A DNA stretch of 64,000 nt from Terrimicrobiaceae bacterium (lineage in GTDB: Bacteria; Verrucomicrobiota; Verrucomicrobiia; Chthoniobacterales; Terrimicrobiaceae): assembly GCA_045403045.1 (NCBI GenBank), contig JAXIPG010000028.1, forward strand, positions 8,086 through 72,085. The letters are read 5' to 3'. The notes under the pieces are model-generated. The model had not been told where the DNA came from and did not search any database. It saw nothing but the letters and a program-made list of their open reading frames with translations. Positions 1 through 24,715 of this stretch are shown here, one piece after another. Position 1 is the first letter of the stretch, and every line of letters starts with the position of its first letter. Position numbers and translations under genes: made by a program.

Positions 1-112
1 GAAGGTCACCGGGGCGCCGCAAACAATCATACAAACCATCGGGAGCCGGCCGTGATCACGGCGCCTGCTAATCTCGACCAAGCGAATGCTCAACCAATCC
101 CAGGAGGCTTCA

Positions 113-3100
113 ATGCGAAACGTTAGGATCTCGCGGAGCTTTTTTGCAATAGGAACGTTGCTCTTCCTCGGAGCGACTTCGATCTTCTCTGCCGAACCTG
201 TGCTGTCGCAGCTCAAGGTCGAGCAGAAAATAGGGAAAGACGACCACGGCATCTACCAAGTGACGCCGGCGTTGCAGATCTCCTTCACGTTGACGGAGCC
301 AGCGGATGTGACGGTGACCATCGCCCGGCACCTGGCGGGATACGAGGAGTTCAAATGGCCCTATCTGGCGGCGCCCTTTCCCGTGCGCACGCTGAAGCCT
401 GGCAAGCTTAAGGCCGGGCTGCAGACGGTGGATTGGGATGGCTTCGATGAAAATGGACAGCCGATCGTCGAGGTGCAAAATGTGAAGCCTGATGAACTGG
501 ATCGACTCAAGCTGAAGACGGCGACCGTGGAGCAACTGACCAGAACGCTTCCGGTCAGTCTCCTGCACGTGACCGTGGCAGCGGGCAAGGAGCAATTGTC
601 CGCCAACTTCGACCGTGCCATAGAGATGCTCCGGCCGAACCGCAGCGTCCGCCCGTTCCCTATGAGTGCGGTGGATCGCCAGGGAAATTTCCTGGTGCCG
701 GACTTCTGGGGGGGGAGCGTTCTGCGCTACTCGCCCGACTGGGTGCTGCTCGGGCAATGGCCGAAGGATCACAGCCGGGGACAGGGTTACGAGCCGGGTG
801 AATGTGGGGATGCGGGAACGGACAGCCAGGGCAATGTCTTCGCCGTCACTGGCTCGGGCGTTTACCGCTACGGCGTCAATGACGGCGGGGAACCCACGCC
901 CTGGCCTGAACAATCGGAATATACCAAGGCTCAAAACAAGGGCCACCTGCTTGGAAAGAGCGAGGAGAAATACAGCGGATTCGCTATCGATGATCAGGAC
1001 CGCATCTACACGGGGCGCAACCGACCGGATCCCTGCATCCTGGTGTTTGACAACAATGGCAAATTCCTGCGCAACCTGACGCTGCCTGAAGGCCGGCGCC
1101 CGGGGGAGATCCGCTGGCTGGGAAAGGACATCCTGGCGGTGACGGCGATCGGTTCGGACCCTGAGGGTGTGGTCTTCCTCATCGATGCCACGACGGGAGC
1201 GGTTACAAAGCGCATCGACATCGAAGACAACAGTCCGCTCCGCCTGTGGGCGGGACCGGATGGTTCTTTCATCACCGGTCACGGCGCAGGCATCGTCCGA
1301 CGCTATACGCGCGCAGGCGATCCTCTGCCGTTCGACCCCACCGTGGTCAATGTCCGTGGCAATGAGATCCGTTTCGCGCCACATGAATTCGGCCTGCCCA
1401 AGCAGTCGCCCGGGTTCCCCCTCGGTCCCCGAGGGTACGCGATCGCCACAGATGGCAGTTTCTCGATTTCCGAGGGGCTCGACTCCAATAATGCGCTCGC
1501 GACGAGCGAGGTATTCAACTACTCGAAGGGCGGCGTCTATCAGCCGGAAAACATCCTGGCCAGCCTTGGCCAGCGCACAGCTGGCAACGTCTTCCTTGAC
1601 GACGCGCCGGCTGCCTTCGACCTTTTCGTGACGAACTTCTTCGAACAGCAGCAGTCGCTCACCGTGCATTGGACACTGACCGACTTCGATGGCCGGAAGA
1701 CGATGGGAACGTCCACGGTGGTGGCGGAGCCGCTGCGCCGTCAGACGCTGCCGTTCACCGTGGATGCGCCGGCGCTTGGCCACTACCGCTTGGCGGTGGA
1801 GGTGCGTCACGGCAAGAAGCTGGTCGAGGCGCTGGGAGCGCAACTGGCGCGCATTCCGTCGCGGGACCTGAAGGAGAACCGCTATTCGCCCTTTGCCATG
1901 TGCCTCGTCGGTGAATTCGAGGTGATGAAGCTGGCCGGCGTCAAGAGCCACCGCGGAGATTCCGCTTCGTGGGCCCGGCAGGTCGAGCCGCTGGACGGCG
2001 TCTTCTATCCGGACCGGCCCGAGGCACGTCAATTTCCGCGGGGAGGCGCCGACAGCCTGCGCGCCTATGGACGGCGTGAGGGCTTTCTGCTGCTCAACGG
2101 CTTGAACTATGGCGAAGGCTGGCTGGGTGGCGACTGGGTCGGTCAGCCCACCCACTTCCTCTACAGCTACGATCGCTTCTACGGGTATTGCCTGCGGATC
2201 CTGGATCAGTTTGCAGGCAAGGGCGAGGCGTTCTATCAGTTCTGGAACGAGCCCGACAACTTCTGGGGGCCACGGGGCGCGTTTGGCCGTGAGCACTTCG
2301 CCATGGTTCAGAAGCACGTCTGGAGCATGGTCAAGGCGCGTGACAAGAATGCGCTGGCGATCGCCGACGGCGATGCGGGCGGCGTGAGGATGATGGAGGA
2401 ATTCGCCGAATACGGCGCAGCCGATTCGAACGACACCGTGCAGATGCACTATCCAGCCGCCACGGTCTATTCCTGGGATAACATGAAGTTTCCGGATCTG
2501 CCGGAGACGAAGGCGCCCGTCATCGCAAAGCTGGTGCAAATCCGCAACGAATCGTTTCCTGGCAAGGAAGTTTGGAACACGGAGGATACCGTTCCGGCCA
2601 ATCCGAAAACCGCCGAGATAACGGCCGCCAATCTGCCCCGGATGTATATCTCGCAAATCGCGGCGGGCGTGGACAAAGTCTACTTGTTTCCCCAGACCGG
2701 CATCTACAGCAGCCGGCATGACGTTGCTGGTTGCCTGGATGAGAACGGACATCCGTTCCCGACCTTCGTAAGCTACGCAACCGTTTCGCGATTGATTGAC
2801 GGGGCCCTATACGCGGGGCAGGCCGATTTCGGAGAAGGGGCTTATGGATATCTGTTTGCTCGTGGCCAGGATTTTGTGCTGGCCGCAAATACTATTTCCG
2901 GAACGCGGGAAGTGACCGTGGATGCGGGGGCTCCGAATGTGACGGTCGTTGACTTGATGGGCCGCTCAAAAGCCGTGACGATGCAGGGAGGCAGGCTGAA
3001 ACTCACGCTATCGCCCCAGATGCAGTATGTGTTGCTGCCGCGCAACAGCGCCGGGGCTCTGAGGATTGCCAATGGAGAGCTCAAGAAGCGTCTCGAGGTC

Positions 3101-3853
3101 TTGCAAGTCAGAACGGTGGGGGAGTTGCCGGGAAAAATCATCGAGGCGGCGAAAACGGCGGCCACCGATCCTGCGATGATGAATCGCCTTTATCATTTGG
3201 TCAAAGCGGCCGAAGTCTCCGCGGCGGCTAGTAGCACGCCAGAATCGAAGATGGAAATCGGCGGCGTGGCGAAAACCGCGCGCCAAGCCGTGGAAAAACG
3301 TGAAGGCGCGGACGGCTATCTCCGCCAGGCCCGGGTGGCGCTCGACTGGATGGAGCGACTGACCCAACAAGCCGGACGGGACCCGAGAATGGCCAGACCC
3401 GCCTGGCTGGCCGCCCAAGCCACGCAAGGTCTGGCAGCAGTCGAGAGGCCTGTGTACCCCGGCGTCGTCGTGAACGCCTTCATCGGCGACCCCGGCGAAA
3501 TCCAGAAGATCCGCGCCATTGTGCCTGTGGCGAACGAGCGCGCCACGTCCATTGATGACAAGTTCCGATTCCAAATCGACCGCAAGGCGGGAGAGACCTT
3601 TGATCTGGAATTAACGGTGAGCAACTATTACCGGCACAAGATCGAGGGCAGGGTGGCGCCGCGTTTGCCGGATGGCTGGAAAGCGGTGCAAGAGCCAGTC
3701 CCGTACTCCCTGGAACCCGGCGGTTGGCAACGCCATGTCTTTACGATCCAAATTCCTGAAAGCGCCGAACCAGGAACCTATAACGTGGGCGGCCAGACAC
3801 AATATCAGGGCGGCGAAATCAAGGAAATCCATGCCTCGCGGGTGAAACTGTGA
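113..3853 (+). CDS. Large secreted multidomain glycoside-hydrolase-like protein (FlgD-Ig-like N-domain, NHL/beta-propeller-like repeats, TIM-barrel-like core, NEW3-like C-domain)
   Basis: ORF 86..3853. The second ATG at 113 is preceded by AGGAGG (102-107). Signal peptide MRNVRISRSFFAIGTLLFLGATSIFSAEP. 'LKAGLQTVDWDGFDENGQPI' is FlgD-Ig-like. 'YQFWNEPDNFWGP' resembles the clan GH-A NEP acid/base motif. C-terminal 'GETFDLELTVSN...RLPDGWKA' is NEW3-like. Confidence 0.6.
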   Translation: MRNVRISRSFFAIGTLLFLGATSIFSAEPVLSQLKVEQKIGKDDHGIYQVTPALQISFTLTEPADVTVTIARHLAGYEEFKWPYLAAPFPVRTLKPGKLKAGLQTVDWDGFDENGQPIVEVQNVKPDELDRLKLKTATVEQLTRTLPVSLLHVTVAAGKEQLSANFDRAIEMLRPNRSVRPFPMSAVDRQGNFLVPDFWGGSVLRYSPDWVLLGQWPKDHSRGQGYEPGECGDAGTDSQGNVFAVTGSGVYRYGVNDGGEPTPWPEQSEYTKAQNKGHLLGKSEEKYSGFAIDDQDRIYTGRNRPDPCILVFDNNGKFLRNLTLPEGRRPGEIRWLGKDILAVTAIGSDPEGVVFLIDATTGAVTKRIDIEDNSPLRLWAGPDGSFITGHGAGIVRRYTRAGDPLPFDPTVVNVRGNEIRFAPHEFGLPKQSPGFPLGPRGYAIATDGSFSISEGLDSNNALATSEVFNYSKGGVYQPENILASLGQRTAGNVFLDDAPAAFDLFVTNFFEQQQSLTVHWTLTDFDGRKTMGTSTVVAEPLRRQTLPFTVDAPALGHYRLAVEVRHGKKLVEALGAQLARIPSRDLKENRYSPFAMCLVGEFEVMKLAGVKSHRGDSASWARQVEPLDGVFYPDRPEARQFPRGGADSLRAYGRREGFLLLNGLNYGEGWLGGDWVGQPTHFLYSYDRFYGYCLRILDQFAGKGEAFYQFWNEPDNFWGPRGAFGREHFAMVQKHVWSMVKARDKNALAIADGDAGGVRMMEEFAEYGAADSNDTVQMHYPAATVYSWDNMKFPDLPETKAPVIAKLVQIRNESFPGKEVWNTEDTVPANPKTAEITAANLPRMYISQIAAGVDKVYLFPQTGIYSSRHDVAGCLDENGHPFPTFVSYATVSRLIDGALYAGQADFGEGAYGYLFARGQDFVLAANTISGTREVTVDAGAPNVTVVDLMGRSKAVTMQGGRLKLTLSPQMQYVLLPRNSAGALRIANGELKKRLEVLQVRTVGELPGKIIEAAKTAATDPAMMNRLYHLVKAAEVSAAASSTPESKMEIGGVAKTARQAVEKREGADGYLRQARVALDWMERLTQQAGRDPRMARPAWLAAQATQGLAAVERPVYPGVVVNAFIGDPGEIQKIRAIVPVANERATSIDDKFRFQIDRKAGETFDLELTVSNYYRHKIEGRVAPRLPDGWKAVQEPVPYSLEPGGWQRHVFTIQIPESAEPGTYNVGGQTQYQGGEIKEIHASRVKL

Positions 3854-3888
3854 AAACCTGTTATTCAAGCGAAAAGAACAATAGTGCT

Positions 3889-4956
3889 ATGAAGAAAATG
3901 ATCTTTCATGCCATACACGGAGCTTCATCGCTCAGTCTTCTTTGGGTCGTTTGCTGGCTGCCGGCAGCGGACGTGCGGGCCGCGGACGCCCGCAAGGGAA
4001 GCGGCTCTCAAACCAATCAGGCGGCCGCCGCTTCCAAGGTGCAAGAACAAGGCCCGCCGGCTTCTCCCATCCTCAGCGTGATTTTCGACGATCCCAACGG
4101 CCTATTCACTTCCTATACCGAAGGGATATCTCGTTCGGATGCACAGAACAACCCGGAGATTCAGAAACAGGAGATCGCCACAGGCGTGGGCGCTTCGGCG
4201 AAGGTGGAGATAGGCGATGGCGACTGGGGAGAAGGAGGCGAAGAGCCGCCAAAATCCTTTTCGCTTTTGAGCAAGCCCGCGGAAGGAATCAAGTCGGCCC
4301 TGCGTCTCAACGGCAACAAGCTCGTTCCCGGAACCAGCGGCAGCGTGCGGATTATTCCGCAAGGCGTGGAGACCTCCATGGCGTCACTGTCTTCTTTTAA
4401 AAACGGAAAGGTGTTCCTCAACGGCGGGATCGATATGTTCCTCCGATACTCAGAAGAGCCTCCCTCGGCCAATCTCATGCCCGGTATTTTTGGCTCACAG
4501 GGCCTCGGCCTGCATTTCCTTGTCGAGGCGCATGAGGGAAGCGTCATTGCGAGGTTGGATGACGAGAAGGGCGAGCTTATTTTCGACACAGATCTGGACG
4601 GCGCAGCCGATGCGGTAAGAGTGGATACCACTTTCGTGAATCCGGCGGAATTCGATCCTGAAAAGTTCCAGCACCTCGCGGTTTGGTTTCAAACGGGGGA
4701 GGATGGAACCGTGACACTGAAGGTTTTTTTCAAGGTGGGAGCGGGCTCGATTAATACCGGAGAGGATGCGGACCTGGCTTCCATGGCTAGCTTCCGGGTA
4801 ATCACCCAAGACAGCACAAAACTCTTCGAGAATGGCTCGCTGGTCTTCGGGGCAAACTCAAGGAACCAGCCAGAAGTCGTTCATAACGACATCGCGGCGT
4901 TCCGGCTTTTCACGCCCGCGCCGGCCGTTTTTCCGGATCTTACAGGCGAGAAGTAG
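3889..4956 (+). CDS. Secreted hypothetical protein (possible LamG/concanavalin-like fold)
   Basis: ORF 3850..4956. ATG at 3889 gives MKKMIFHAIHGASSLSLLWVVCWLPAADVRA, a signal-peptide-like N-terminus. It starts just after the stop of the upstream gene. No catalytic motif recognised. Confidence 0.45.
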   Translation: MKKMIFHAIHGASSLSLLWVVCWLPAADVRAADARKGSGSQTNQAAAASKVQEQGPPASPILSVIFDDPNGLFTSYTEGISRSDAQNNPEIQKQEIATGVGASAKVEIGDGDWGEGGEEPPKSFSLLSKPAEGIKSALRLNGNKLVPGTSGSVRIIPQGVETSMASLSSFKNGKVFLNGGIDMFLRYSEEPPSANLMPGIFGSQGLGLHFLVEAHEGSVIARLDDEKGELIFDTDLDGAADAVRVDTTFVNPAEFDPEKFQHLAVWFQTGEDGTVTLKVFFKVGAGSINTGEDADLASMASFRVITQDSTKLFENGSLVFGANSRNQPEVVHNDIAAFRLFTPAPAVFPDLTGEK

Positions 4957-6980: not shown

Positions 6981-7148
6981 AACCGCCCACCACAGGAATC
7001 ATTTTCTTGTTGAAAAAATATCAAAACTGTTTCTATTGGATAAAATCTACTCAGGACCTTTTCTTCCTAGTTCCATTGCACATTGATAAATTCATAGGGG
7101 CATCCTCCCTGCTCCTCCACAAGCAGACGGATTACTTCCGAAGTGCGC

Positions 7149-7176
7149 GGCAGGCAATATTTTGCTGCCTTTTTTT
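7149..7176 (+). terminator. Terminator-like hairpin plus T7 run immediately upstream of ATG 7184
   Basis: GGCAG(G)CAA-tatt-TTGCTGCC followed by TTTTTTT (7170-7176). It lies 7 nt before the first ATG of the TPR ORF and overlaps a signal-peptide-like coding stretch, so its role is ambiguous. Confidence 0.35.
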
Positions 7177-7183
7177 GCTTCTT

Positions 7184-9883
7184 ATGACTGGGCGCCTTAC
7201 TGCTCAGGAACAAGCGCAGCCCGAACTCGCGCAGCTACCAACGGGCGAACTTGAAAAGCAGGCGGTTTTTATGGTGGGAGCCCAGAAGTATGTCGAAGCC
7301 ATCCCTCTCCTCGCCGAACTGGTGAACCGTCTGGGGGAATCCAAAGATACCCAAACCCAATCCAAAGTGGAGGGATTCCGCTACTTTTTGGGTTTGGGCC
7401 ATGTCTTCAATAGCAATTGGGAGGCCGCAGCGACCACCTTCGAGAATTTCCTGAAATCTCATCCCAAGAGCAATCGTTACCGAAAAGTCTTGGAACTCTA
7501 TGGAGACACTCTTTCGCAAACCAAGCGCTATGCGGAAGCCGCTGAGCAGTATAAGAAGCTTCTCGAACTGAAGATGACAGATCTCGAAAGTTTCCCGATC
7601 TGGGAGAAGCTCGCTTCGTGCTACATGCGCGACCAGAAATGGAGCGACGCGGTGCCGGTCCTTCTGATCATGCTGCAAAAAAGCCGAACCGAGGCCCAGC
7701 GGGAACAGGCGGTCGTGTGGCTCGCGCAATCCTACATCGAATCCGATCAGGGGAGCAAGGTGATCGAACTCCTTCCCGACATGTTGACCAAGGCGCCCAA
7801 GGCCAGACTTAGCATCGATTTCAACCTGGCCCTCCTCAACGGAGGCGACAAGATGTTCGCCGCTCAGCAGGATCTTCTTGCCCTGCTGTTCTATAATCTG
7901 GTGCTTCCTCCGGCGCGATTGCTCGAAGCCAATCAAAAATTGGAAGCCGATCTCATGCGTCAGCGAAGCCAGGTGATCAAAGCCGGCCAGATGGAATTCG
8001 TGGTGGATATCAATCGCCGGATTCAGGACCTTCAGAACGAGCGTGCCCTTCTGGAGCAGACGCCGGACTTTTCCGAGGAACTCCTTATGCGCATCGCCCA
8101 GGCATATTTTAGTTCAAACAGGTTCTATGAGGCATTTTGGACGTTCTGGAAGATCTACCAGGACTATCCGAACGGGAAGCTCGCGGAAGACTCCTGCTAC
8201 GGTGCGTTCGCTCTTGCCGCCCAGCTTGAGCAGGACGCGAAAGCGAAGGAGGCGGGGCTGAAGTATATGGGATCTTTTCCCGAAGGCAAACACTGGGAGG
8301 ACGTAAGCCTTCAGCTTGGTCAAGTCTTTGTCCGAAACAAGGAGTATGCGACGGCTATCGAGTATTATGCGGAGATCCTTAAGGCCAGGCCAGAGCACCC
8401 TTATAAGGACCAGATTCTTTACATGCTCGGCTTCTCCCAGTTTCAGGAGGCCCGCCTCGCGGATTCCCGCCAGACCTTTCAGACCCTCAGCAGAGACTTT
8501 CCAGGAAGCGACAAAGCGTCGCTTGCCCTCTACTGGGTCGGCATGACCTATCTTTTTGAAGACAACTACAAAGATGCCCTCGAGGCATTCAATCGATTCA
8601 CCGAAAAAAGTACGGACGGCAAACTCTATGAGGATGCCAGCTTCCGAAAGTCTGTTTGCCTCTTCGGACTTGAAAATTATCCCCTTGCCGCGGAGAAGCT
8701 TGAGGAATTCCTAAAAGAGTTCCCAGTAGACACTCTCACACCCGAGGCGCATACGCTGCTTGGGGACTGTTACGGCGCGACCGGGGATCTGGAAAAGTCT
8801 CTCGAGCACTACAAGCAGGTGGAGGATTGCGCCGTCAAGCAGAGCCAGATCGATTATGCGGCCCTTCAAGTCGGGCGCGTCCATGAGCAGTTGGAACAAT
8901 TCAAGGAAATGGAGGATTGGTTTGGCCGCTACCTGGAAAAATACGGCATTAGCGGAGATTACACGCAGGCGATCTACCGGAAGGGTTTCGCGCAGCAAGC
9001 GCAAGGGAGATCCAAAGAAGCATTGGATACCTACTGGCAAGCGATTGAGAAATACGGCAACGATCCCAAGGCGATGGGTATCGATATCATCATCGACGCT
9101 TACTGCGAAGAGTCTCGCGCGCTTAACGCCGCTCAGCCATTGGACGTGATTCGCTCGGCCGCGCTTACGGCAACGCAGCAAAAAGAGCGCACCCGTGCGC
9201 TGAGATTTGAGCGCGCCCTCGCTCAAATGAATGCCCCCGACGCTCCCTCCGCTCTAATTCTCGCCGATATCGATGCGGCCAGCCCGGCCGTCTTGCTCTG
9301 GATGGCGCAGGTTGCGGCGAAAACCGACCCGGCGCTCGCGGAGAGCGCCGCGCGCGCGGCCATCGACAAGTTTGGACCTACCCAGTGGACCGCTGAGGCT
9401 TTCTTGAGGCTTGGGGACTTCGCTTTCGAAAAGAGAGACTGGAAGCAGGCGGAATCCGCATTCAACAAAACGGTCAGAAACTCTCCGATGAACGCGACCG
9501 CCGCCCGCGCAACAATACGACTCGGCGACGTTCAATTTGCTCAGGCACACTACGACGAGGCGATCAAACGCTACGAACAAGTGCTGCAGGTCAAGGAATG
9601 GAAGGGGGAATTGTGGCCGGAAGCCCTCTACATGGTCGCCGAGAGCCTCAAGAGTCAGGGCAAGGAAAAAGAAGCGTATGCATACTACCAACGGATCTAC
9701 GTTCTTTATCCCCACTATAAGGAGTGGACGGCCAAAGCTTATCTGCGCTGCGCCGAGATCTCCGAGAAACTTGGCCTGAAAGACGACGCTGTGCGCACGC
9801 TTGGAGAAATGCTCGCCAATCAATCTCTTCGTTCCACGTCGGAATACGTGTCGGCCGAGAAAAGACTCAAGGAACTTCAGTAG
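7184..9883 (+). CDS. Large tetratricopeptide-repeat (TPR) protein, first gene of the Exb-vWA operon
   Basis: ORF 6650..9883; first ATG in frame is at 7184. Repeated TPR-like helices throughout (e.g. 'YAEAAEQYKKLLEL', 'YATAIEYYAEILKARPEHPY', 'YDEAIKRYEQVLQV'). The start is uncertain (see findings). Confidence 0.7.
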   Translation: MTGRLTAQEQAQPELAQLPTGELEKQAVFMVGAQKYVEAIPLLAELVNRLGESKDTQTQSKVEGFRYFLGLGHVFNSNWEAAATTFENFLKSHPKSNRYRKVLELYGDTLSQTKRYAEAAEQYKKLLELKMTDLESFPIWEKLASCYMRDQKWSDAVPVLLIMLQKSRTEAQREQAVVWLAQSYIESDQGSKVIELLPDMLTKAPKARLSIDFNLALLNGGDKMFAAQQDLLALLFYNLVLPPARLLEANQKLEADLMRQRSQVIKAGQMEFVVDINRRIQDLQNERALLEQTPDFSEELLMRIAQAYFSSNRFYEAFWTFWKIYQDYPNGKLAEDSCYGAFALAAQLEQDAKAKEAGLKYMGSFPEGKHWEDVSLQLGQVFVRNKEYATAIEYYAEILKARPEHPYKDQILYMLGFSQFQEARLADSRQTFQTLSRDFPGSDKASLALYWVGMTYLFEDNYKDALEAFNRFTEKSTDGKLYEDASFRKSVCLFGLENYPLAAEKLEEFLKEFPVDTLTPEAHTLLGDCYGATGDLEKSLEHYKQVEDCAVKQSQIDYAALQVGRVHEQLEQFKEMEDWFGRYLEKYGISGDYTQAIYRKGFAQQAQGRSKEALDTYWQAIEKYGNDPKAMGIDIIIDAYCEESRALNAAQPLDVIRSAALTATQQKERTRALRFERALAQMNAPDAPSALILADIDAASPAVLLWMAQVAAKTDPALAESAARAAIDKFGPTQWTAEAFLRLGDFAFEKRDWKQAESAFNKTVRNSPMNATAARATIRLGDVQFAQAHYDEAIKRYEQVLQVKEWKGELWPEALYMVAESLKSQGKEKEAYAYYQRIYVLYPHYKEWTAKAYLRCAEISEKLGLKDDAVRTLGEMLANQSLRSTSEYVSAEKRLKELQ

Positions 9884-9888
9884 CTGCC

Positions 9889-10977
9889 ATGAGAAGCTCT
9901 CTTGCCGCATTCCTCTTGCTTGGAAGCCTTAGTCTTTCCCACGGTCAGGCAAGTCCTGAGACGACGACGGAAGCCGCCGGATTTCCTGCGATCATCACCG
10001 ATAGCAAGACGGGAAGAACCAGCGCCGCAAATGTCACCAGGCTTGCAGGAGGACAGTTGTATCTGGTCGCAGGAAACGGCAGTGTCGCAATCCCTGCGAG
10101 CACCGTTTCCGCCGCGGAATTCGATCTTCCCGCGCCCGTCAAACAGGCCTCGGAAGCTTACCAGGCGGGCGATATCGACAAAGCCGCCTCACTCTATCCC
10201 GCGCTCACGCCGATGCGCAGCCTGGCCGGCCTGACAAAATGCAACGTCACGGAAGAATTCCTCAATTTCGCCGACACCTACCGCCAGATTCGCAAGTACG
10301 CAGAGGCCGAGGCATTGCTGGACTCTCTGAAGCTTGGAGAAAACAAGGAGGCGGAGCTGCGCGCAAAGCTCATCCGCGCCTTCATTTTCTGCGACAAAAA
10401 CCAAATCGACAAAGCGGATGAGTTGATGAAAGACTTTCCCCGCGTGAGCTCAGACGATCTTAATTTTCCCCTGGATCGTATCGTCCGCACAAGAATCTTT
10501 TTGGCCAAAGGGATATACCACGAAGCGGCCCTCGAAGCCGGGGAGGCCGTCGCCGTGACGCGTATCGAAGCCCCTGTCTATCCCGAGTCGCTCTATCTTG
10601 CGGCTGCTTGTTACGAGAAGATGGGGGAAGTCCTTGCGAATAAGAAAGCCGGCATGAATCGCGCCGAGAGCGAGAAGATCATGGATGACACGATTGACTA
10701 TGCAGCGGTTGGTCAGGCAGTGCGCCAGGAACTCTGCCTCCTCTTTTCGAAGAACTATTGGGCGAAAAAAGAGCCTGCCAACGTTGACCAACTCCTTGCT
10801 GCAGCCGCTTCAATCACCCTCAAGACCGGCAAAAAGCCCGCCGAAACAAAGAATGCGACCCAATCGCCCGAGGCTGCTAAGCAATCCGAAAAGAACGAGG
10901 AAAAGCCCGTTTGGGAAAACTTTCTTAACAAACCAGAAGCCAAACCAGAAAATGACGACATCGATAGCAATCTCTAA
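9889..10977 (+). CDS. Secreted TPR-like/helical repeat protein
   Basis: ATG 9889 lies 5 nt after the upstream stop. Signal peptide MRSSLAAFLLLGSLSLSHGQA. Helical repeats ('YRQIRKYAEAEALLDSL'). Lys/Glu/Pro-rich C-terminal tail. Confidence 0.55.
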   Translation: MRSSLAAFLLLGSLSLSHGQASPETTTEAAGFPAIITDSKTGRTSAANVTRLAGGQLYLVAGNGSVAIPASTVSAAEFDLPAPVKQASEAYQAGDIDKAASLYPALTPMRSLAGLTKCNVTEEFLNFADTYRQIRKYAEAEALLDSLKLGENKEAELRAKLIRAFIFCDKNQIDKADELMKDFPRVSSDDLNFPLDRIVRTRIFLAKGIYHEAALEAGEAVAVTRIEAPVYPESLYLAAACYEKMGEVLANKKAGMNRAESEKIMDDTIDYAAVGQAVRQELCLLFSKNYWAKKEPANVDQLLAAAASITLKTGKKPAETKNATQSPEAAKQSEKNEEKPVWENFLNKPEAKPENDDIDSNL

Positions 10978-11842
10978 ATCCTTTGGCGGCGCTTTGCGCC
11001 TCGCCGTTCTCGCGATCCTTCTCGGATTTCTTCCACTCGTCCTTGACGCGCGGGCACAGGAGGCTCCCGTTTCGACGGAACAATCCGCTTCTTCTCAGGC
11101 ACAGCAGCCTCCGGCCGGCTCGCACAGGAAAGACAAGACGTTCTTCGAGGTGCTCAAGGACGGCGGGATCGTCATGTTTCCACTTGCCGCAGTCTCGGTA
11201 TACATGCTCACGCTCATCATCGACAGCGTTCGCCGGATTCAAAACAAGGTGGTTTGTCCGGCGGATGTTGTGAATCTCCTCCGATCCCAGTTTAGCGCCG
11301 GCGACTACAACGCGGCGTTTCAAACGTGCCGTTCGAAGGCGTGCTTCTTGACGAATGTCGTAAGGGCGGGCCTGAGCATGCTTGGCCAGGGGAAAGAGAT
11401 CACAGAAAAGGCGATGGAGGATGTGATGGCCAAGGAAATCGCATCAATGAGCACGCGAATCTATTATCTGAACCTTATCGGCGTCGTGACCCCGATGATC
11501 GGTCTGACCGGAACCGTGCTGGGTATGATGAGCGCGTTCAAAACTTTGGGAACCAGCGGAATCGGCGATCCTTCCGCGCTGGCTGGCGCGATCGGCGAGG
11601 TTCTCGTTGCTACAGCCACCGGTCTGTTTGTGGCTATTCCGGGATTTGCCAGCTACTACTTCTTCCGAAACCGCATCCAAGCTGTTTCAAGCTATACCGA
11701 AGAGGTCATCAACAACCTATTTCGCGGCATGCCCTATGCCTATCTTGCCGGAATGAACATCGGTGATGACCCGGTGTATGCCGCGATTCCCAAGGAATAT
11801 CTTAACGCAGACCGGCCGACGGAGTACGCCGAGCAGCAATAG
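10952..11842 (+). CDS. exbB: MotA/TolQ/ExbB-family proton channel with signal peptide and N-terminal extension
   Basis: 'GLTGTVLGMMSAFKTLG' and 'GAIGEVLVATATGLFVAIPGFASYYFFRNR' are canonical ExbB/TolQ TM2-TM3 motifs. N-terminus MTTSIAISKSFGGALRLAVLAILLGFLPLVLDARAQE. Confidence 0.85.
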   Translation: MTTSIAISKSFGGALRLAVLAILLGFLPLVLDARAQEAPVSTEQSASSQAQQPPAGSHRKDKTFFEVLKDGGIVMFPLAAVSVYMLTLIIDSVRRIQNKVVCPADVVNLLRSQFSAGDYNAAFQTCRSKACFLTNVVRAGLSMLGQGKEITEKAMEDVMAKEIASMSTRIYYLNLIGVVTPMIGLTGTVLGMMSAFKTLGTSGIGDPSALAGAIGEVLVATATGLFVAIPGFASYYFFRNRIQAVSSYTEEVINNLFRGMPYAYLAGMNIGDDPVYAAIPKEYLNADRPTEYAEQQ

Positions 11843-11868
11843 CCGCCAGAAATCGACGAAGCCTGGCC

Positions 11869-12297
11869 ATGAAGATCAGACAGCAACACGCGGAGGAACT
11901 CGGATTTCAAATCGCGCCAATGTGCGATGTCCTCCTGGTTCTGCTTGTCTTTTTCATCTCGATCACGGCCACGAGTTCGCTGCGTTCCGATCGTGCCATC
12001 GAACTGCCCGTTGGACCGGATGCGACGAAAAAGGCAACCGCGCGCTCGGAGGCTCTCATCAACGTAAAATGGCTTCCCGAGAAGTCTGAAGGAGTCGTCG
12101 CCATCGAGAGCAAAGTGATGACGGAGCTGCCGGCGGTGACTGAGCTTCTGGCGCCGCGTTCAAAAACCGACCCGAACTATAGAGTGGTCATCCGCGCGGA
12201 TCGCAAAACCCCCGCACAGTACGTCGAGAAGGTCATGGGCGCATGCGCTGAGGCAGGAATCACCGATATCGCCTTCTCCGTCTTGAATCACGAATAA
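11869..12297 (+). CDS. exbD: ExbD/TolR-family biopolymer transport protein
   Basis: 142 aa. 'ELGFQIAPMCDVLLVLLVFFI' is the typical ExbD N-terminal TM with the conserved Asp. Confidence 0.85.
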   Translation: MKIRQQHAEELGFQIAPMCDVLLVLLVFFISITATSSLRSDRAIELPVGPDATKKATARSEALINVKWLPEKSEGVVAIESKVMTELPAVTELLAPRSKTDPNYRVVIRADRKTPAQYVEKVMGACAEAGITDIAFSVLNHE

Positions 12298-12303
12298 ATT
12301 CCC

Positions 12304-12744
12304 ATGCGCATTCATTCGGAACCCGCCGGAAACCTGGAATTTCAAATCGCTCCCATGGTTGACGTGATCTTCATCCTGATTTTGTTTTTCATGTGCTCTG
12401 CAGGCGCCACCAAGGTGGAGAACGAGCTGAGTCTGAAGCTTCCAGGGAGACTTTCGCAAGATCAACCATTGAGGATGCTGGACGAGCAGATCATCGAGAT
12501 CGAGGAAAGTGGACAGATTATCCTGAACAACCAGCAAATGGACGCTTCGGCCTTGGGCGCGACGCTTCAGCGCTACAAGGCCATCTCTGACGACAGCAAA
12601 TCCGCGACCGTGATCACCATCCTCACCGCCAAGAACACGAAATACCAGAGGATCATTGACGTCCTCAACGAATGCGCGGTGGCAAAGATTGAGTCGGTCA
12701 CGTTCATGACCCAGCCGGACGAAAAGAAATTGGCAGCCCGATGA
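12304..12744 (+). CDS. exbD: ExbD/TolR-family biopolymer transport protein (second copy)
   Basis: 146 aa. 'NLEFQIAPMVDVIFILILFFM' with the conserved Asp in the TM. Confidence 0.85.
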   Translation: MRIHSEPAGNLEFQIAPMVDVIFILILFFMCSAGATKVENELSLKLPGRLSQDQPLRMLDEQIIEIEESGQIILNNQQMDASALGATLQRYKAISDDSKSATVITILTAKNTKYQRIIDVLNECAVAKIESVTFMTQPDEKKLAAR

Positions 12745-14126
12745 GCGAGACCACCGCTAATGTTGAAGAGTTCGCCACCAAGCGCAAGCAGCCGATCTTG
12801 GGGACGTTTTCCCTAAGCATCGTTATTCATGCAGCGGTCATCGCTATCCTTGGAGGAGTCGTCGTTTTCAAAGTTCTCGAGAGACCTCCGGCACAGTTCA
12901 AACCGCCTCCTCCTCCTGCAAAAACCACCAAGATTGAGCCCCGCAAGATCCAGCATAGGATCAAGATCCGCGAGCAGCAGCAAAACAGCGGCCGCCCGCG
13001 TGTGTCGCCCCGACTCACCGCAAACCGCGTCTCCGGCATTTCCCTGCCGGAAATCGAGGTCGATCCGATGGCCGCGCCGGTAAAGTCCAATATTCAGAAG
13101 AATGTTGGCAAGAATTTTTCGATGGGAGGGCTAGGCACCGGGCTGGGCAGCGGAACCGGCTCGGGCGGACTCGGGCTCGGCACATCCACGGTAAGCTTTT
13201 TCGGCATCCAAGCTGCGGGTGAACGCATCGCCTTCCTCATCGATCTTTCGCGCAGCATGGTCGAGGATGACAAAGGTGGCTTGAACGGTATTATTGTGCT
13301 CAAGAACGAGCTCAAGAACATGGTTCAAAAGCTGAACGATGGCACGTTCTTCAATCTGATTTTCTTCGACGACAACGTTGACCTCTTCAAGCCGAAGCTT
13401 GTCGTCGCCAAGCCCCCCACTAAGAAGGAGGCCGACGAGTTCATCTCCCCATACTATGCGGATTTTGGCAAGGAAACGCTGCAAAACTACTCGCAGGACA
13501 AAAGGGATTGGCCCTCGGCAACACGGTTGCGCAACTACAATCATCCGATGTTGGAATCCACGGCGAAATACGTGAGCGGAGGTAGCAATAGCCAGATGGA
13601 TACTCCTCTTGCGGCGGCCTTCCAAATGCAAGCGGATACCATTTTCATTATCAGCGATGGATATCCGTCCTTTCAGCGGGCTCTTTTTGGCAAGGAGCTC
13701 GAGGAGTACGAAAGGAGAGTAGCGGAAGCAGAGGAAAAATGGGCGAAAGTCACTCCGAAGGAACGCGAGAGAATTGAGAAGGCGAACAAGGAGATCGCCG
13801 AGAAATACTGGAAGGCCATCGATGCCGAGAATGCAAAGAGAGCCCGCCACGGATTACCGCCGAAAGTTTTCGAGAATGGGGGTCCGGGCGGAATCGGTGG
13901 CTCTGGTGTGGGCCGGCCGAGCTTAACGCCGGGGCAAACCGTTGAATATATTCGTGCGATGGCAGTGGAACTATACGGAGACCCAAAGAAAATGCCGAAG
14001 ATCTACACGGTGGCCTATGGCGCAGAGGCCGGAGGCGAAGCGTTCCTTCAGGCGCTCGCACGGGAATTTCACGGCCGTTATCGGAAGATTCGCGGACTGG
14101 CGCCTCCCGTGAAAGTTAAGAACTGA
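12741..14126 (+). CDS. TonB-like N-terminus (TM plus Pro-rich) fused to a von Willebrand factor A (vWA/MIDAS) domain
   Basis: ATGA overlap with the exbD stop. TM 'ILGTFSLSIVIHAAVIAILGGVVVF', then 'PPAQFKPPPPPAKT', then a Gly-rich linker. vWA strands: 'IAFLIDLSRSM' (DxSxS MIDAS), 'FNLIFFDD', 'TIFIISDG'. No TonB C-terminal motif seen. Confidence 0.7.
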   Translation: MSETTANVEEFATKRKQPILGTFSLSIVIHAAVIAILGGVVVFKVLERPPAQFKPPPPPAKTTKIEPRKIQHRIKIREQQQNSGRPRVSPRLTANRVSGISLPEIEVDPMAAPVKSNIQKNVGKNFSMGGLGTGLGSGTGSGGLGLGTSTVSFFGIQAAGERIAFLIDLSRSMVEDDKGGLNGIIVLKNELKNMVQKLNDGTFFNLIFFDDNVDLFKPKLVVAKPPTKKEADEFISPYYADFGKETLQNYSQDKRDWPSATRLRNYNHPMLESTAKYVSGGSNSQMDTPLAAAFQMQADTIFIISDGYPSFQRALFGKELEEYERRVAEAEEKWAKVTPKERERIEKANKEIAEKYWKAIDAENAKRARHGLPPKVFENGGPGGIGGSGVGRPSLTPGQTVEYIRAMAVELYGDPKKMPKIYTVAYGAEAGGEAFLQALAREFHGRYRKIRGLAPPVKVKN

Positions 14127-14177: not shown

Positions 14178-14837
14178 CTATGGTGCGGGCGGGAGCGGCT
14201 TATCGGTTTCTGCGGTTTTCCCGCTGGCGACTTCATTAAACTTGGATCCCACCGCCTCTACAAGCTTGGGTGTTACGTCCTCCTTTTTTAAGGGACTCAC
14301 AGCAACAATCCTCCAAACTCTTGGAATCTCAGTCTTCTCATCCGGAAGGGCCTTAAACCAAGCTTCCCTGGTAACCGCTGTGACAATCAGACCCGCCTTC
14401 AGCTGCTCTGGCGCAGGTGCCGCAGACCCGAATTCGAATCCCAGATTCCGTAAGGCGTTCTGCGATTCCATCGTGTTGGCCCTGCCCAAACCGTAAGAGA
14501 GGTCGAACGAACGCCATGCTCTTGGAAGAGGCGTCGTGCCGGCGCTAGGCGGCTTGGAACGTTCAATCGTGGGGATTACTACGAGTTCCGCTTCGTTCTC
14601 TTTCTCCTGAACTTTGAACCCGTTGGCAGTGAGTTGGTTGCGTATCAACCCAGCAAGCTTGTCGGCTTCGTCCTGGTCATCCATGTATAGATCCGCAACA
14701 ACCGCGACCGAACGTTTCTTCGCCTTCTCCGCGTCGAACACCTCCGCCGCGACTTTCACCTTGGGAGCGCTCGCGCAGCCCACTAGGAGAAAGCCCAAGC
14801 TCCAAACCAATAACAACAGACGCCAAGTCTCCGGCAT
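14178..14837 (-). CDS. Lipoprotein, unknown function
   Basis: ATG 14837 gives MPETWRLLLLVWSLGFLLVGCASAPK, which contains a lipobox (L-V-G-C). Confidence 0.6.
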   Translation of the reverse strand: MPETWRLLLLVWSLGFLLVGCASAPKVKVAAEVFDAEKAKKRSVAVVADLYMDDQDEADKLAGLIRNQLTANGFKVQEKENEAELVVIPTIERSKPPSAGTTPLPRAWRSFDLSYGLGRANTMESQNALRNLGFEFGSAAPAPEQLKAGLIVTAVTREAWFKALPDEKTEIPRVWRIVAVSPLKKEDVTPKLVEAVGSKFNEVASGKTAETDKPLPPAP

Positions 14838-14915
14838 GCGGTCATCAATATGCGTGGGATCGCAAAGTGCACGCACTGATCATCATTGAGCAAACAAAAA
14901 GACCCTCAGAAATGG

Positions 14916-15012: not shown

Positions 15013-16437
15013 TCAATATGCCGTTTTCGGAGGCTTAACGACCTGAAGCATCGTTTGGAAGATTATCCAGAAATCGAGAGGCAGCGACCAGTTCTCGATA
15101 TATTTGATGTCCAGCTTCGCGCGTTCTATCACATCCTTTTCATCTTTCGCTTCGCCCCGGAATCCACTCATTTGCGCCAGACCGGTAATCCCCGGTTTGG
15201 CGAAGGTCCGAACGTGATACTTTTCCATGATATCGCTGAATCTCCTGTTGTGGATGATCATGTGCGGACGCGGGCCAACCAGGCTCATGTGACCCAGGAA
15301 CACATTCAGAAATTGTGGCATTTCATCGAGGCTGGTTTTGCGCAAAAGCCGCCCCATCGGATAGATTCGAGGGTCACCGGCTGTTGCCTGCTTTGAAGCA
15401 GCATCGCCTTTATCAACTCGCATGGTCCGAAACTTGAAGATGCGAAACGGGCGCATGGCCAAGCCGGCGCGGGTCTGCCTATAGAACAGCGGGCCGGGAG
15501 ACTGAATGGCCTGAAAGATCTTCACCAAAATGGACAGCGGCGGCAGAACAAAGATCACAACAGGCAGGCTCGCAACAAGATCTATCGTTCGTTTCAGGAT
15601 GCGGCTCAGCGGGTCTTCCAGGGGTTCAGGCCTCAAACTTATGAAGTTTCTATTATGCAGATTAAAGAACGTGATATCATGCTTGAAGATCTCCGGGAGG
15701 TTATTGAGGACAAGGAGGCGAACGCCTGCCTTGTTTGCGGCACCGACGACGAGGTCGAGCCCTTCCTGATCGAGGGGAATCTCCAGGAGAAGGATCTGTT
15801 TGATGCCTTCATAACTGATGATTCGCTCAAGCATCGCAACGTCCGACACACGTGCTAAATGCAAGACCCGTGATTCCTCGCTATCGTCGTCGGCCACGGA
15901 ACCGCGCATGCCGAAATTAAAAGCAGCAGTTTCTTCGATCCATCTGGCGATGTCTCGCGCTTTTTCAACCGGACCGATCAGCAACGTTCTTTGCTCGTGT
16001 GCCTCCGAGAAGAGATGGTCGGCCAGCTTGCGCAGCAGAAAAAGATGGCAGATCAGAAAGACAACATAGAGGGCAAGCAAGAAACCGAATAGCAGCGTCA
16101 GCTTCAGGGGACGGGACCCCGGTGGATCCACGGCAGCCAACATCACAACAAGCATCGTCACGCCAACATACACGGTTTGCTTGAAGGCCAGAGTGTGACT
16201 GTCCACAAAACCTCCCGCAAGCATCGTCGGCGCAGTCCCTCGCACGCGAATTGCGGCGACCGCCAGGCCGGCGACTGCAGCGAGATTGTACAAGATGAAT
16301 CGCTGAAATTCTTCGGTGCCAACGGACTTGAAGACTGCCGCGATGATCGTCAGGTAACTCCAGAAGACGAGCGTAAGAATAACCGCGAGAATACCGTGGT
16401 AAGCATTCCACAACCCTCTGATGCGATGCCAAAGCAT
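15013..16437 (-). CDS. Polyprenyl-phosphate hexose-1-phosphate transferase (WbaP/Bac_transf family), initiating enzyme
   Basis: Multiple N-terminal TMs. The C-terminal domain carries 'LDEMPQFLNVFLGHMSLVGPRP' and 'KPGITGLAQMSGFRG', which are bacterial sugar transferase signatures. Confidence 0.85.
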   Translation of the reverse strand: MLWHRIRGLWNAYHGILAVILTLVFWSYLTIIAAVFKSVGTEEFQRFILYNLAAVAGLAVAAIRVRGTAPTMLAGGFVDSHTLAFKQTVYVGVTMLVVMLAAVDPPGSRPLKLTLLFGFLLALYVVFLICHLFLLRKLADHLFSEAHEQRTLLIGPVEKARDIARWIEETAAFNFGMRGSVADDDSEESRVLHLARVSDVAMLERIISYEGIKQILLLEIPLDQEGLDLVVGAANKAGVRLLVLNNLPEIFKHDITFFNLHNRNFISLRPEPLEDPLSRILKRTIDLVASLPVVIFVLPPLSILVKIFQAIQSPGPLFYRQTRAGLAMRPFRIFKFRTMRVDKGDAASKQATAGDPRIYPMGRLLRKTSLDEMPQFLNVFLGHMSLVGPRPHMIIHNRRFSDIMEKYHVRTFAKPGITGLAQMSGFRGEAKDEKDVIERAKLDIKYIENWSLPLDFWIIFQTMLQVVKPPKTAY

Positions 16438-23386: not shown

Positions 23387-24715
23387 CTAGGACACGGCAA
23401 CTTGTTTACGAGGCGCCGCACTCCTCATCAGTTGCAGCCTGGCTACGAAAGCACGGAATGCCTTTGGATCCAGCGCTGCGCCGAACACGATCCAAAGAAT
23501 CGAAAACGTGGTGATGAGATTCCCGACGAAACAAGCCGGGATTAGGGCGATCATAAATGCTCTGCCGAGCATCACCTCGGAGGGCCTGTATCCCACTCGG
23601 TATCTTATTGCCATCTCCTGCCACATGCGCCATAGCGCATAAAGCAGAAGCCCGGTTCCAATCCAGCCGAGTTGGGTCATGATTTCCAAATAGCCGGCGT
23701 CGCCGATCACGGGCGCACTGCCGCCACCGACTCGGCCAGAAAGGCCGGTGGCGCCCAGTCCGGAGCCAAGGGGATTTGACAGAATGGCACCGACAGAGGT
23801 TTGATAAATCTCTACCCTGCCTTGAAAGGATCCGTCATCTTGCATGCTCCCAAGCGTCGCAAAGCGGTCCTGGACTTGCTGGCCCATGGCACCCATGCCG
23901 AAATACGCTGCACCACCGATGACGACGAAGCTGATCGCCAGTTGCCAGAATCCGGTTCCGCGATTGACCATCACATAGATCATTGTTGACAATGCCGCGA
24001 GGATTATCCCGGTTCGCGTGCCGGAGAGCAGAATGACCGACAACACAAGGACCACTCCAAGCCAGCTGAGGGGTCGCCATTTCGGCGCCAAGATCATCGG
24101 CACCACGGCAAAGCCAAGAAATCCTCCAAGAACCCCACGCTCAGCCATCGTTGAGAAGACGGCCATTTTTGTCGGTTCCAGGGTTCCCAAGTAGCCCTCG
24201 AATCCTACCGCCCTCACCCAAAAAGCGTCCCACGGCGGAATCGTAAAATATTGGTACCAGCCATACGCGGATGCCCCGATCGCGCACCAGGCGGAAGTGC
24301 GAAGCCAACGATCCTTCGTATTCGAAGTCGGTGACAAGCTCACGATGTATCCAAATACCGCTATTGGAGCCAAGACCTCCCCCAGTGCGAAAACCGCACC
24401 AAACTGGATGCGGAGAAACCCGATGATAAACGCATATCCGATTGCAATGAACAGACAGGTAAAAATGGTCCTCAAGGCCTTCGGCAACATGCCGAAGTGC
24501 GGCAGAAAGGGGATGAGCATAAGCCCGGTAACAAGCAACGGCGTCAAACTGACGGGAGAAAAGGGGTTGAATGAACCGGCATTGTAGTCCAAAATGCGCC
24601 GCAGTTCCCGGTTAAAGACGTAAACGATTACGACATAGTCCACCAAATAGCTGGACCGCTGAGCAGCCAGGGCTACAGCAATCGCAACAATACTTCCGGC
24701 GCAGATCCAATCCAT
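23387..24715 (-). CDS. Wzy-like polysaccharide polymerase / O-antigen-ligase-family membrane protein
   Basis: 442 aa, roughly 10-12 hydrophobic spans. Central 'LLSGTRTGIILAALSTMIYV' followed by a large loop, typical of the Wzy_C family. Confidence 0.6.
   Translation of the reverse strand: MDWICAGSIVAIAVALAAQRSSYLVDYVVIVYVFNRELRRILDYNAGSFNPFSPVSLTPLLVTGLMLIPFLPHFGMLPKALRTIFTCLFIAIGYAFIIGFLRIQFGAVFALGEVLAPIAVFGYIVSLSPTSNTKDRWLRTSAWCAIGASAYGWYQYFTIPPWDAFWVRAVGFEGYLGTLEPTKMAVFSTMAERGVLGGFLGFAVVPMILAPKWRPLSWLGVVLVLSVILLSGTRTGIILAALSTMIYVMVNRGTGFWQLAISFVVIGGAAYFGMGAMGQQVQDRFATLGSMQDDGSFQGRVEIYQTSVGAILSNPLGSGLGATGLSGRVGGGSAPVIGDAGYLEIMTQLGWIGTGLLLYALWRMWQEMAIRYRVGYRPSEVMLGRAFMIALIPACFVGNLITTFSILWIVFGAALDPKAFRAFVARLQLMRSAAPRKQVAVS

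Follow-up and report, generated by a model that had tools for sequence, protein, structure and literature searches.

A six-gene operon on the plus strand of this Terrimicrobiaceae contig (GCA_045403045.1), at 7076-14126 of the 64,000-nucleotide stretch analysed here (the window, to whose positions coordinates refer), very probably encodes a von Willebrand A-domain (vWA) force transducer, a proton-motive-force machine built like Ton or Tol with a different head. An earlier sequence-only reading of this DNA had proposed a machine energised by the proton motive force, with a vWA domain as effector and tetratricopeptide repeat (TPR) proteins as scaffolds. The proposal is supported by the predicted fold of the last gene product, by the SxxxH(x6)L pattern of its membrane helix, by an Asp in the membrane segment of both ExbD-like proteins and by the conserved gene order. 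That reading did not recognise a described system. Here it has been overtaken: the class was published in 2025 in Mol Biol Evol ('Origin and Evolution of Bacterial Periplasmic Force Transducers', PMC12204202), where it is described from sequence and structure prediction. Judged by its sequence, the window operon belongs to this class, and every testable feature matches bar the 'motor box', for which we find a candidate motif. With the class already published, what is new is a clean Terrimicrobiaceae example and the constraints it yields: His30 and Ser26 of the transducer are the most conserved features, metal dependence is not to be assumed family-wide, and the second TPR-like gene is integral.

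Operon layout and motor subunits

The operon consists of six co-directional, tightly packed open reading frames.

7076-9883, plus strand: gene 1, periplasmic TPR protein, about 935 residues (Pfam, NCBIfam, homologue lengths)
9889-10977, plus strand: gene 2, secreted TPR-like protein, 362 residues (orthologue profile, signal peptide)
10952-11842, plus strand: gene 3, TolQ/ExbB-like proton-channel subunit, 296 residues (PF01618)
11869-12297, plus strand: gene 4, TolR/ExbD-like subunit 1, 142 residues (PF02472)
12304-12744, plus strand: gene 5, TolR/ExbD-like subunit 2, 146 residues (PF02472)
12741-14126, plus strand: gene 6, vWA force transducer, 461 residues, with a TonB/TolA-like anchor, a disordered linker and a vWA head

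Gaps of 5, 26 and 6 nucleotides separate neighbouring genes; gene 3 overlaps the end of gene 2 by 26 nucleotides (10952/10977), and at 12741-12744 an ATGA joins the stop codon of the second ExbD-like gene to the start of the vWA gene. Positions, direction and junctions are those given in the sequence-only reading, and a check of reading frames and junctions reproduced them all. A scan for promoters and terminators inside the operon yielded nothing informative.

Which type of motor do genes 3 to 5 encode? Profile hidden Markov model searches against Pfam and NCBIfam, the check suggested with the earlier identifications, returned TPR, MotA_ExbB, ExbD and ExbD for genes 1, 3, 4 and 5, as had been assigned. 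Gene 3 matches MotA_ExbB (PF01618, 3.6e-26) and has a signal-peptide-like N-terminus followed by a periplasmic extension. Its nearest solved structures are TolQ (1.7e-13) and then ExbB (3.2e-9); its GTV...G and E..L.AT motifs align with TolQ, and the alignment extends through the conserved helices that contain Thr and Glu. Genes 4 and 5 match ExbD (PF02472) at 8.9e-19 and 6.7e-20, respectively. Both score highest against TolR models in NCBIfam (TIGR02801 tolR is the best match of gene 4), and gene 5 finds TolR in the PDB at 4e-6. Each carries Asp20 in its transmembrane segment, within APMCDV in gene 4 and APMVDV in gene 5; in gene 5 the alignment pairs this residue with the Asp of LLDVLL, the conserved transmembrane motif of TolR, presumably D23 of the E. 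coli protein. Thus the two domains, the TolQ Thr and Glu and the transmembrane Asp that define a MotA/TolQ/ExbB plus ExbD/TolR stator are all present. By these profile matches the stator is nearer to TolQ/TolR than to ExbB/ExbD. As the two TolR-like products are only 24% identical, they form a heterologous pair.

Gene 1 matches many TPR families in Pfam (TPR_2 at 7e-34, TPR_6 at 3e-31, also TPR_16 and YfiO), and its NCBIfam match to tol_pal_ybgF-type repeats, 164 bits over nine stretches, exceeds the tol_pal_ybgF cut-off; the repeats are of the CpoB/YbgF and BamD/YfiO types. The TPR identity claimed for a protein of 900 residues starting at 7184 therefore holds, while the start probably does not. 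Read from ATG 7184, the product has 899 residues, begins with MTGRLTAQEQ and is devoid of a signal peptide, whereas homologues have 900-973 residues and carry N-terminal signal peptides, so that TTG 7076 is probably the true start. Read from there, the protein has 935 residues, its signal peptide is restored with an n-region and with the h-region AIFCCLFLLLMTG, and cleavage probably falls between LTA and QEQ.

The gene 2 product starts with a cleavable signal peptide (MRSSLAAFLLLGSLSLSHG, cut before QA); a small N-terminal part rich in beta structure comes next, then a core of TPR-like helical repeats, and the tail is charged and disordered. Neither Pfam nor NCBIfam has a match for it. A profile of its orthologues (alignment A3) finds consensus TPR (4e-8), PPR and LapB (1.5e-4) repeats in the PDB, which makes the label 'TPR-like' reasonable and, together with the signal peptide, bears out its earlier description as a secreted TPR-like protein.

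The probable vWA transducer and its relatives

The product of gene 6 was modelled with AlphaFold2 from an alignment of 34 homologues (A1). Mean pLDDT is 75, with most values between 85 and 97 in the globular part. Four of its features are listed below.

12798-12869, plus strand: transmembrane helix, residues 20-43, with S26-x3-H30-x6-L37-G38 (AlphaFold2 helix 16-47)
12882-13184, plus strand: disordered periplasm-spanning linker, residues 48-148 (pLDDT below 60)
13185-14090, plus strand: vWA domain, residues 149-450, with a long helical hairpin insert at residues 317-369 (AlphaFold2, Foldseek)
13242-13256, plus strand: loop 1 of the metal ion-dependent adhesion site (MIDAS), D168-L-S170-R-S172, or DLSRS (alignment A1)

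The transmembrane helix (LGTFSLSIVIHAAVIAILGGVVVF) follows a cytoplasmic KRK tail and contains Ser and His, and no Asp. Its S26-x3-H30-x6-L37 pattern has the spacing of the SHLS motif by which TonB and TolA bind their motors, except that its fourth residue is V or T; S16, H20 and L27 of TonB are spaced identically. In the linker, AQF(53)KPPPPP is followed by a conserved SGRPRVxPRLxANRV segment and a Gly-rich stretch, GLGTGLGSGTGSGGLGLG. The conserved A-x-F53-x-x-P-P segment lies 10 residues past the helix and is our candidate motor box; F53 is kept in 73 of 86 family representatives. By analogy with TonB and TolA, and because the partner proteins are secreted, we place the N-terminus in the cytoplasm and the vWA head, putatively, in the periplasm.

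The nature of the head is attested by several searches. Pfam recognises VWA_3 weakly (2e-5, 25.2 bits, under the cut-off of 27), the family profile finds the vWA domain of ITIH1 in the PDB at 4e-6, and the top matches of a Foldseek search of the PDB with the model are almost all vWA-domain proteins, among them ITIH1 (2e-9), CaV alpha2delta, PilB, the LapA vWA domain and 4jdu, an aerotolerance-related membrane protein of Bacteroides fragilis. Neither TonB_C nor TolA domain III is among these top-ranked matches, and neither TonB_C (PF03544) nor TolA is found in gene 6 with Pfam or NCBIfam at E<=0.1. A single membrane helix, a Pro-rich spacer and a vWA head in place of TonB_C, as the sequence-only reading had it, are thus borne out by model, fold search and family profile; the C-terminal half folds as vWA, and not as TonB_C or TolA domain III. 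The MIDAS is complete, with DxSxS joined by S284 and D306. The intact DLSRS motif had been noted before; all MIDAS residues (DxSxS, S/T284, D306) are invariant in 34/34 aligned relatives, so the site is intact throughout this subfamily.

Could the protein instead be of the Bat (aerotolerance) type, or an unrelated membrane vWA protein that lies beside an Exb operon while the true TonB is encoded elsewhere? The B. fragilis structure among the fold matches and the TPR proteins that also accompany Bat operons speak for this. We nevertheless find it hardly credible: operon and flanks contain no MoxR ATPase or DUF58 gene, the vWA start codon overlaps the ExbD stop codon, the synteny is conserved across phyla, and the S-x3-H motif of the helix is TonB/TolA-like and better conserved than the MIDAS.

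The force-transducer reading draws further on relatives of the operon, which we label L0xx where they must be told apart. An exhaustive profile search for the vWA transducer, over representatives clustered at 50% identity, matches 5422 representative proteins at E<=1e-3; with the limit at E<=1e-30 there are 247 clusters, which makes the family a large one. Members named in 30 cluster look-ups were from Puniceicoccaceae, Verrucomicrobiales, Verrucomicrobiota and Kiritimatiella only, and a scan for related loci, with one genome per species, gave 22 loci, all in Verrucomicrobiota metagenome-assembled genomes. The order TPR, gene 2, ExbB, ExbD, ExbD, vWA is found by tblastn in all close relatives and also at 20-40% protein identity (L014, L015, L016, L018 and L022). 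The same six-gene module occurs in L026, another Verrucomicrobiota locus, and in L024, where the last gene is short (343 residues) and a family member by an hhalign probability of 99.6%. The complete genome of Kiritimatiella glycovorans (L028) has a TPR protein of 951 residues, a protein of 282 residues, ExbB, ExbD, ExbD and a vWA protein of 437 residues, followed by another family member of 440. Flanks vary by lineage, and the order is kept amid unrelated neighbours. Conservation of gene order in relatives, on which the sequence-only reading had staked its proposal, is therefore found at 20-40% identity and in two phyla, Verrucomicrobiota and that of Kiritimatiella.

The partner genes share in this conservation. 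The large TPR gene is the first of the module in L014-L018 and L022-L028. The slot of gene 2 is filled in every distant locus examined by a protein of 282-364 residues without a Pfam match, except that in L025 it is longer (585 residues). By this comparison the second TPR-like gene is a constant component of the module.

Which parts of the transducer does the family keep? Across the 86 representatives at 50% identity in alignment A2, nothing is kept as well as the anchor motif, with S26 in 75, H30 in 80 and G38 in 79; S26 and H30 occur jointly in 72. Only 29 of the 86 have both DxSxS and D306 in full, a count limited by a mean column identity of only 20%. Since the anchor Ser/His outlasts the MIDAS, motor coupling looks like the constraint common to the whole family.

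Transducer genes also vary in number. Two or three stand in tandem behind a single motor in L014 (8633-11239), L015 (7015-10930), L016 (8675-11221) and L028 (9001-11787). Of the seven copies in L014, L015 and L016, at least six combine the SxxxH helix with DxSxS; in the first L016 copy DxSxS was not detected by the pattern search. In L017 (9827-16052) and L019 (9890-15933), two metagenome-assembled genomes, transducers with an SxxxH helix and intact DxSxS have no motor adjacent; the next, co-oriented genes encode a PQQ_2 beta-propeller that is BamB-like, a histidine kinase with Cache and HAMP domains, and a response regulator that is sigma-54-dependent. Another orphan transducer is found in L029 and L030. 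Four family proteins of 770-1424 residues (P0124, P0155, P0111 and P0147) match the profile in several stretches and may be fused tandem transducers or merged gene calls. Finally, L023 (9001-15371, GCA_041582935.1) encodes a TPR protein of 1020 residues, a protein of 338, ExbB and three ExbD, has no vWA gene, and is directly followed by tryptophan synthase alpha.

Proposed mechanism, output and neighbourhood

How might such a machine work? Together, the TolQ-like protein and the two TolR-like proteins would supply a 5:2 stator of the inner membrane, in which the dimer would be a heterodimer. As TonB and TolA do, the gene 6 helix may use its conserved His to dock on the outer face of the TolQ-like pentamer; in the AlphaFold 3 models of PMC12204202 the transducer His of the class lies where TonB and TolA bind, at the periphery of the motor. 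The AQF53 segment just past the helix could act as the motor box that touches the TolR-like dimer. Rotation of the motor would then pull the linker, and the vWA head would exert force on a partner, which it might hold through the MIDAS-bound cation and an acidic residue of that partner. This partner is most likely periplasmic or associated with the outer membrane; for the part of adaptor or scaffold, the two TPR proteins suggest themselves.

Several points weigh against this mechanism. According to PMC12204202, a deletion phenotype has yet to be reported for the class. The positive-inside rule alone leaves the topology of gene 6 unfixed. The AlphaFold2 monomer shows no beta-strand motor box in the linker, so that F53 stays a candidate. 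About two-thirds of the wider-family representatives have a degenerate MIDAS, and the second tandem copy of K. glycovorans keeps the Ser/His helix while DxSxS is absent. There are orphan family members without an adjacent motor, and in L023 a third ExbD stands where the vWA gene would be. From the degenerate sites and the second K. glycovorans copy it follows that metal-mediated ligand capture is not a universal mechanism. Metal-mediated binding is, on this alignment evidence, a feature of the present subfamily and not of the whole family, and the term 'metal-dependent' in the sequence-only reading fits the former (34/34) and not the latter (29/86).

What, then, would the machine accomplish? 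PMC12204202 states that the function of the class is unknown and floats a gliding-related role as a possibility. We rank Tol-type envelope maintenance ahead of Ton-type energised outer-membrane transport, and the latter ahead of gliding or adhesion, all three tentatively.

In the first case the module would be the counterpart of Tol-Pal in the Planctomycetes-Verrucomicrobia-Chlamydiae (PVC) group and would stabilise or constrict the outer membrane, the vWA transducer standing for TolA and the large TPR protein for CpoB/YbgF. We hold this tentatively, as a real possibility that is compatible with the vWA force transducer proposed above. The stator is of the nearer-to-TolQ/TolR kind, the TPR protein passes the tol_pal_ybgF cut-off through repeated TPR_6 units, TPR homologues carry the Joint Genome Institute label 'TolA-binding protein', and in several genomes the module lies amid housekeeping genes. 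The class was also found in a species with no recognisable TolA and TonB, according to PMC12204202. On the other side, neither the window nor any related locus examined has a TolB or Pal gene beside the module, the YbgF match stems from generic repeats (the nine stretches), and tandem transducer paralogues resemble multiple TonBs more than a single TolA.

The same paralogues beside one motor favour a Ton-like role, in which the transducer would energise uptake of a polymer or nutrient across the outer membrane and may be related to MUL1, the mucin-utilisation locus of Akkermansia muciniphila that contains ExbB and ExbD. We think this unlikely. Among the scanned proteins of the window (large open reading frames) there is neither TonB_C nor a TonB-dependent receptor, as the sequence-only reading had stated, nor a TolA, no receptor adjoins the module, and the module itself has no outer-membrane transporter gene. 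The order of the MUL1 genes differs, and no TPR-annotated gene lies upstream of ExbB; MUL1 synteny is reported absent from aquatic Akkermansiaceae, whereas the present module is widespread; and ExbB is encoded at two other loci in Akkermansia, which also has TonB-dependent receptors.

Doubtful, too, is the broader notion that the module is a general PVC-group substitute for Ton and/or Tol, with one heterodimeric motor serving interchangeable vWA transducers with or without a MIDAS, and with MUL1 as a derived version. If true, it would give the class its first biological function, the energised uptake of glycans or glycoproteins through the outer membrane without a TonB-dependent barrel.

A role in gliding or adhesion, with a vWA head like the Myxococcus adhesin CglB moved by an Agl/Tol-type motor, seems improbable. 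In its favour, vWA domains serve in adhesion, Myxococcus has a vWA adhesin linked to a motor (cited in PMC12204202), and adhesin vWA domains (PilB, LapA) are among the fold matches. The module, however, contains no Glt-like outer-membrane platform genes, and from its inner-membrane anchor the transducer, whose linker has only some 100 residues, could not reach the cell surface.

The neighbourhood offers one more candidate. A large exopolysaccharide (EPS) or capsule biosynthesis cluster occupies 14900-42600, mostly on the minus strand. It includes at least seven GT4 glycosyltransferases and the following genes.

15013-16437: Bac_transf priming transferase
23387-24715: Wzy-like polymerase
33311-35155: ABC exporter
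35471-36874: UDP-glucose dehydrogenase
38136-40307: Wzz/tyrosine-kinase-like protein
41019-42602: putative beta-barrel porin

Among the close Terrimicrobiaceae loci fetched, most have the first genes of the cluster beside the operon. Does the operon energise export of the polymer made by this glycosyltransferase/Wzy/Wzz cluster? The cluster begins about 900 nucleotides downstream on the opposite strand, and the EPS neighbourhood is kept in L021 and in most of L001-L013, which are close relatives. The EPS genes are divergently oriented, however, and distant loci have the six genes beside unrelated housekeeping genes. Because the adjacency is confined to one lineage, Terrimicrobiaceae, we consider the link very improbable and have dropped it. 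An anti-phage defence system with MotAB-like parts, such as Zorya, was likewise dismissed: PADLOC models match none of the six operon proteins.

Two other neighbours recur. At 86-3853 (plus strand) lies a gene for a protein of 1255 residues with a C-terminal NPCBM_assoc domain, overlapping one at 3850-4956 (plus strand) for a secreted protein of 368 residues without a family match; the pair is also found a few kb upstream of the operon in L002-L004, L007, L009 and L012. A minus-strand gene at 14178-14876 runs towards the end of the vWA gene; its product has 232 residues, a lipoprotein-type signal (LLVGC) and no family match, and the gene keeps this position in Terrimicrobiaceae loci.

Why should a vWA head matter? 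To our knowledge, Ton and Tol were for long the sole routes by which proton-motive energy of the inner membrane was known to reach the outer membrane through a TonB/TolA-type tether. The vWA domain would be a third head on the same anchor, which suggests that anchor plus linker is a reusable module. Through its 247 clusters at E<=1e-30, the family is a candidate for coupling energy to the envelope in bacteria without recognisable TonB or TolA, such as Tichowtungia aerotolerans, the seed species of PMC12204202, which according to that paper has neither. T. aerotolerans is a member of the Kiritimatiellota, the phylum it shares with Kiritimatiella.

Comparison with known systems

With TonB-ExbB-ExbD the operon would share a 5:2 stator driven by the proton motive force and a membrane helix with a cytoplasmic N-terminus; it shares the S-x3-H-x6-L pattern of that helix and a Pro-rich periplasmic spacer, and in both, several transducer paralogues may accompany one motor. 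Unlike that system, it lacks TonB_C, its stator is closer to TolQ/TolR, and its vWA head would bind through the MIDAS and not by beta-strand addition. With TolQ-TolR-TolA and CpoB (YbgF) it has in common a TolQ/TolR-like stator, a YbgF-type TPR protein in the operon and the anchor helix motif. It differs in having no TolA domain III, no tolB or pal, and two TolR paralogues; moreover, the CpoB model of NCBIfam spans 263 positions, as against about 935 residues of the TPR protein here.

A vWA head that would couple to a TolQ-like pentamer also characterises the TPH-vWA family of PMC12204202, which is paired with TolQ only. That family has no tolR and bears a proton-binding Asp in its helix, whereas here there are two tolR-like genes and a Ser/His helix without Asp. 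The two ExbD genes and the Asp-less helix rule out membership. The Myxococcus Agl-Glt gliding machinery resembles the operon in that a Tol/Exb-type motor is functionally linked to a vWA protein with a MIDAS, namely CglB. CglB, however, is an outer-membrane lipoprotein and not a transducer anchored in the inner membrane, and the Myxococcus force transducers GltG and GltJ have TonB-like C-terminal domains.

MUL1 (Amuc_0543-0548) of A. muciniphila, whose mucin-transport gene mul1A is Amuc_0544, shares with the operon the phylum and the clustering of ExbB and ExbD with hypothetical envelope proteins, and has a genetic mucin-transport phenotype. The transcriptome table in the supplement of PMC11480725 gives the order Amuc_0543, Amuc_0544 and an unnamed gene (presumably Amuc_0545), all hypothetical proteins, then Amuc_0546 (ExbD/TolR), Amuc_0547 (hypothetical), Amuc_0548 (MotA/TolQ/ExbB) and Amuc_0549 (endonuclease III). 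This gene order differs from ours and includes no TPR-annotated gene, a comparison of order and product names alone, by which orthology is neither proven nor excluded. Among the word-indexed homologues of the vWA protein, of the wide vWA alignment (a search that gained almost nothing) and of the TPR protein, none is labelled Akkermansia. The same supplement lists MotA/TolQ/ExbB at three loci, Amuc_0283-0289, Amuc_0543-0548 and Amuc_1238-1240; at Amuc_0283-0289 the ExbB gene has long series of hypothetical proteins around it, and a TPR/vWA module might be concealed among them.

The closest system is the published vWA force transducer class itself. As described in PMC12204202, it has the same architecture, with an SHLS-type transmembrane helix bearing the conserved His, then a linker that is disordered, Pro-rich and some 100 residues long, and finally a vWA domain at the C-terminus. 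Its synteny (TPR, tolQ-like, two heterologous tolR-like and vWA genes) and its distribution in Verrucomicrobia and other PVC phyla are likewise those found here. Nothing essential differs from the class as set out there, and the operon is its Terrimicrobiaceae member. To that account the present analysis adds a constant second TPR-like gene, the uneven conservation of the MIDAS, tandem and orphan copies of the transducer, and a variant with three ExbD genes.

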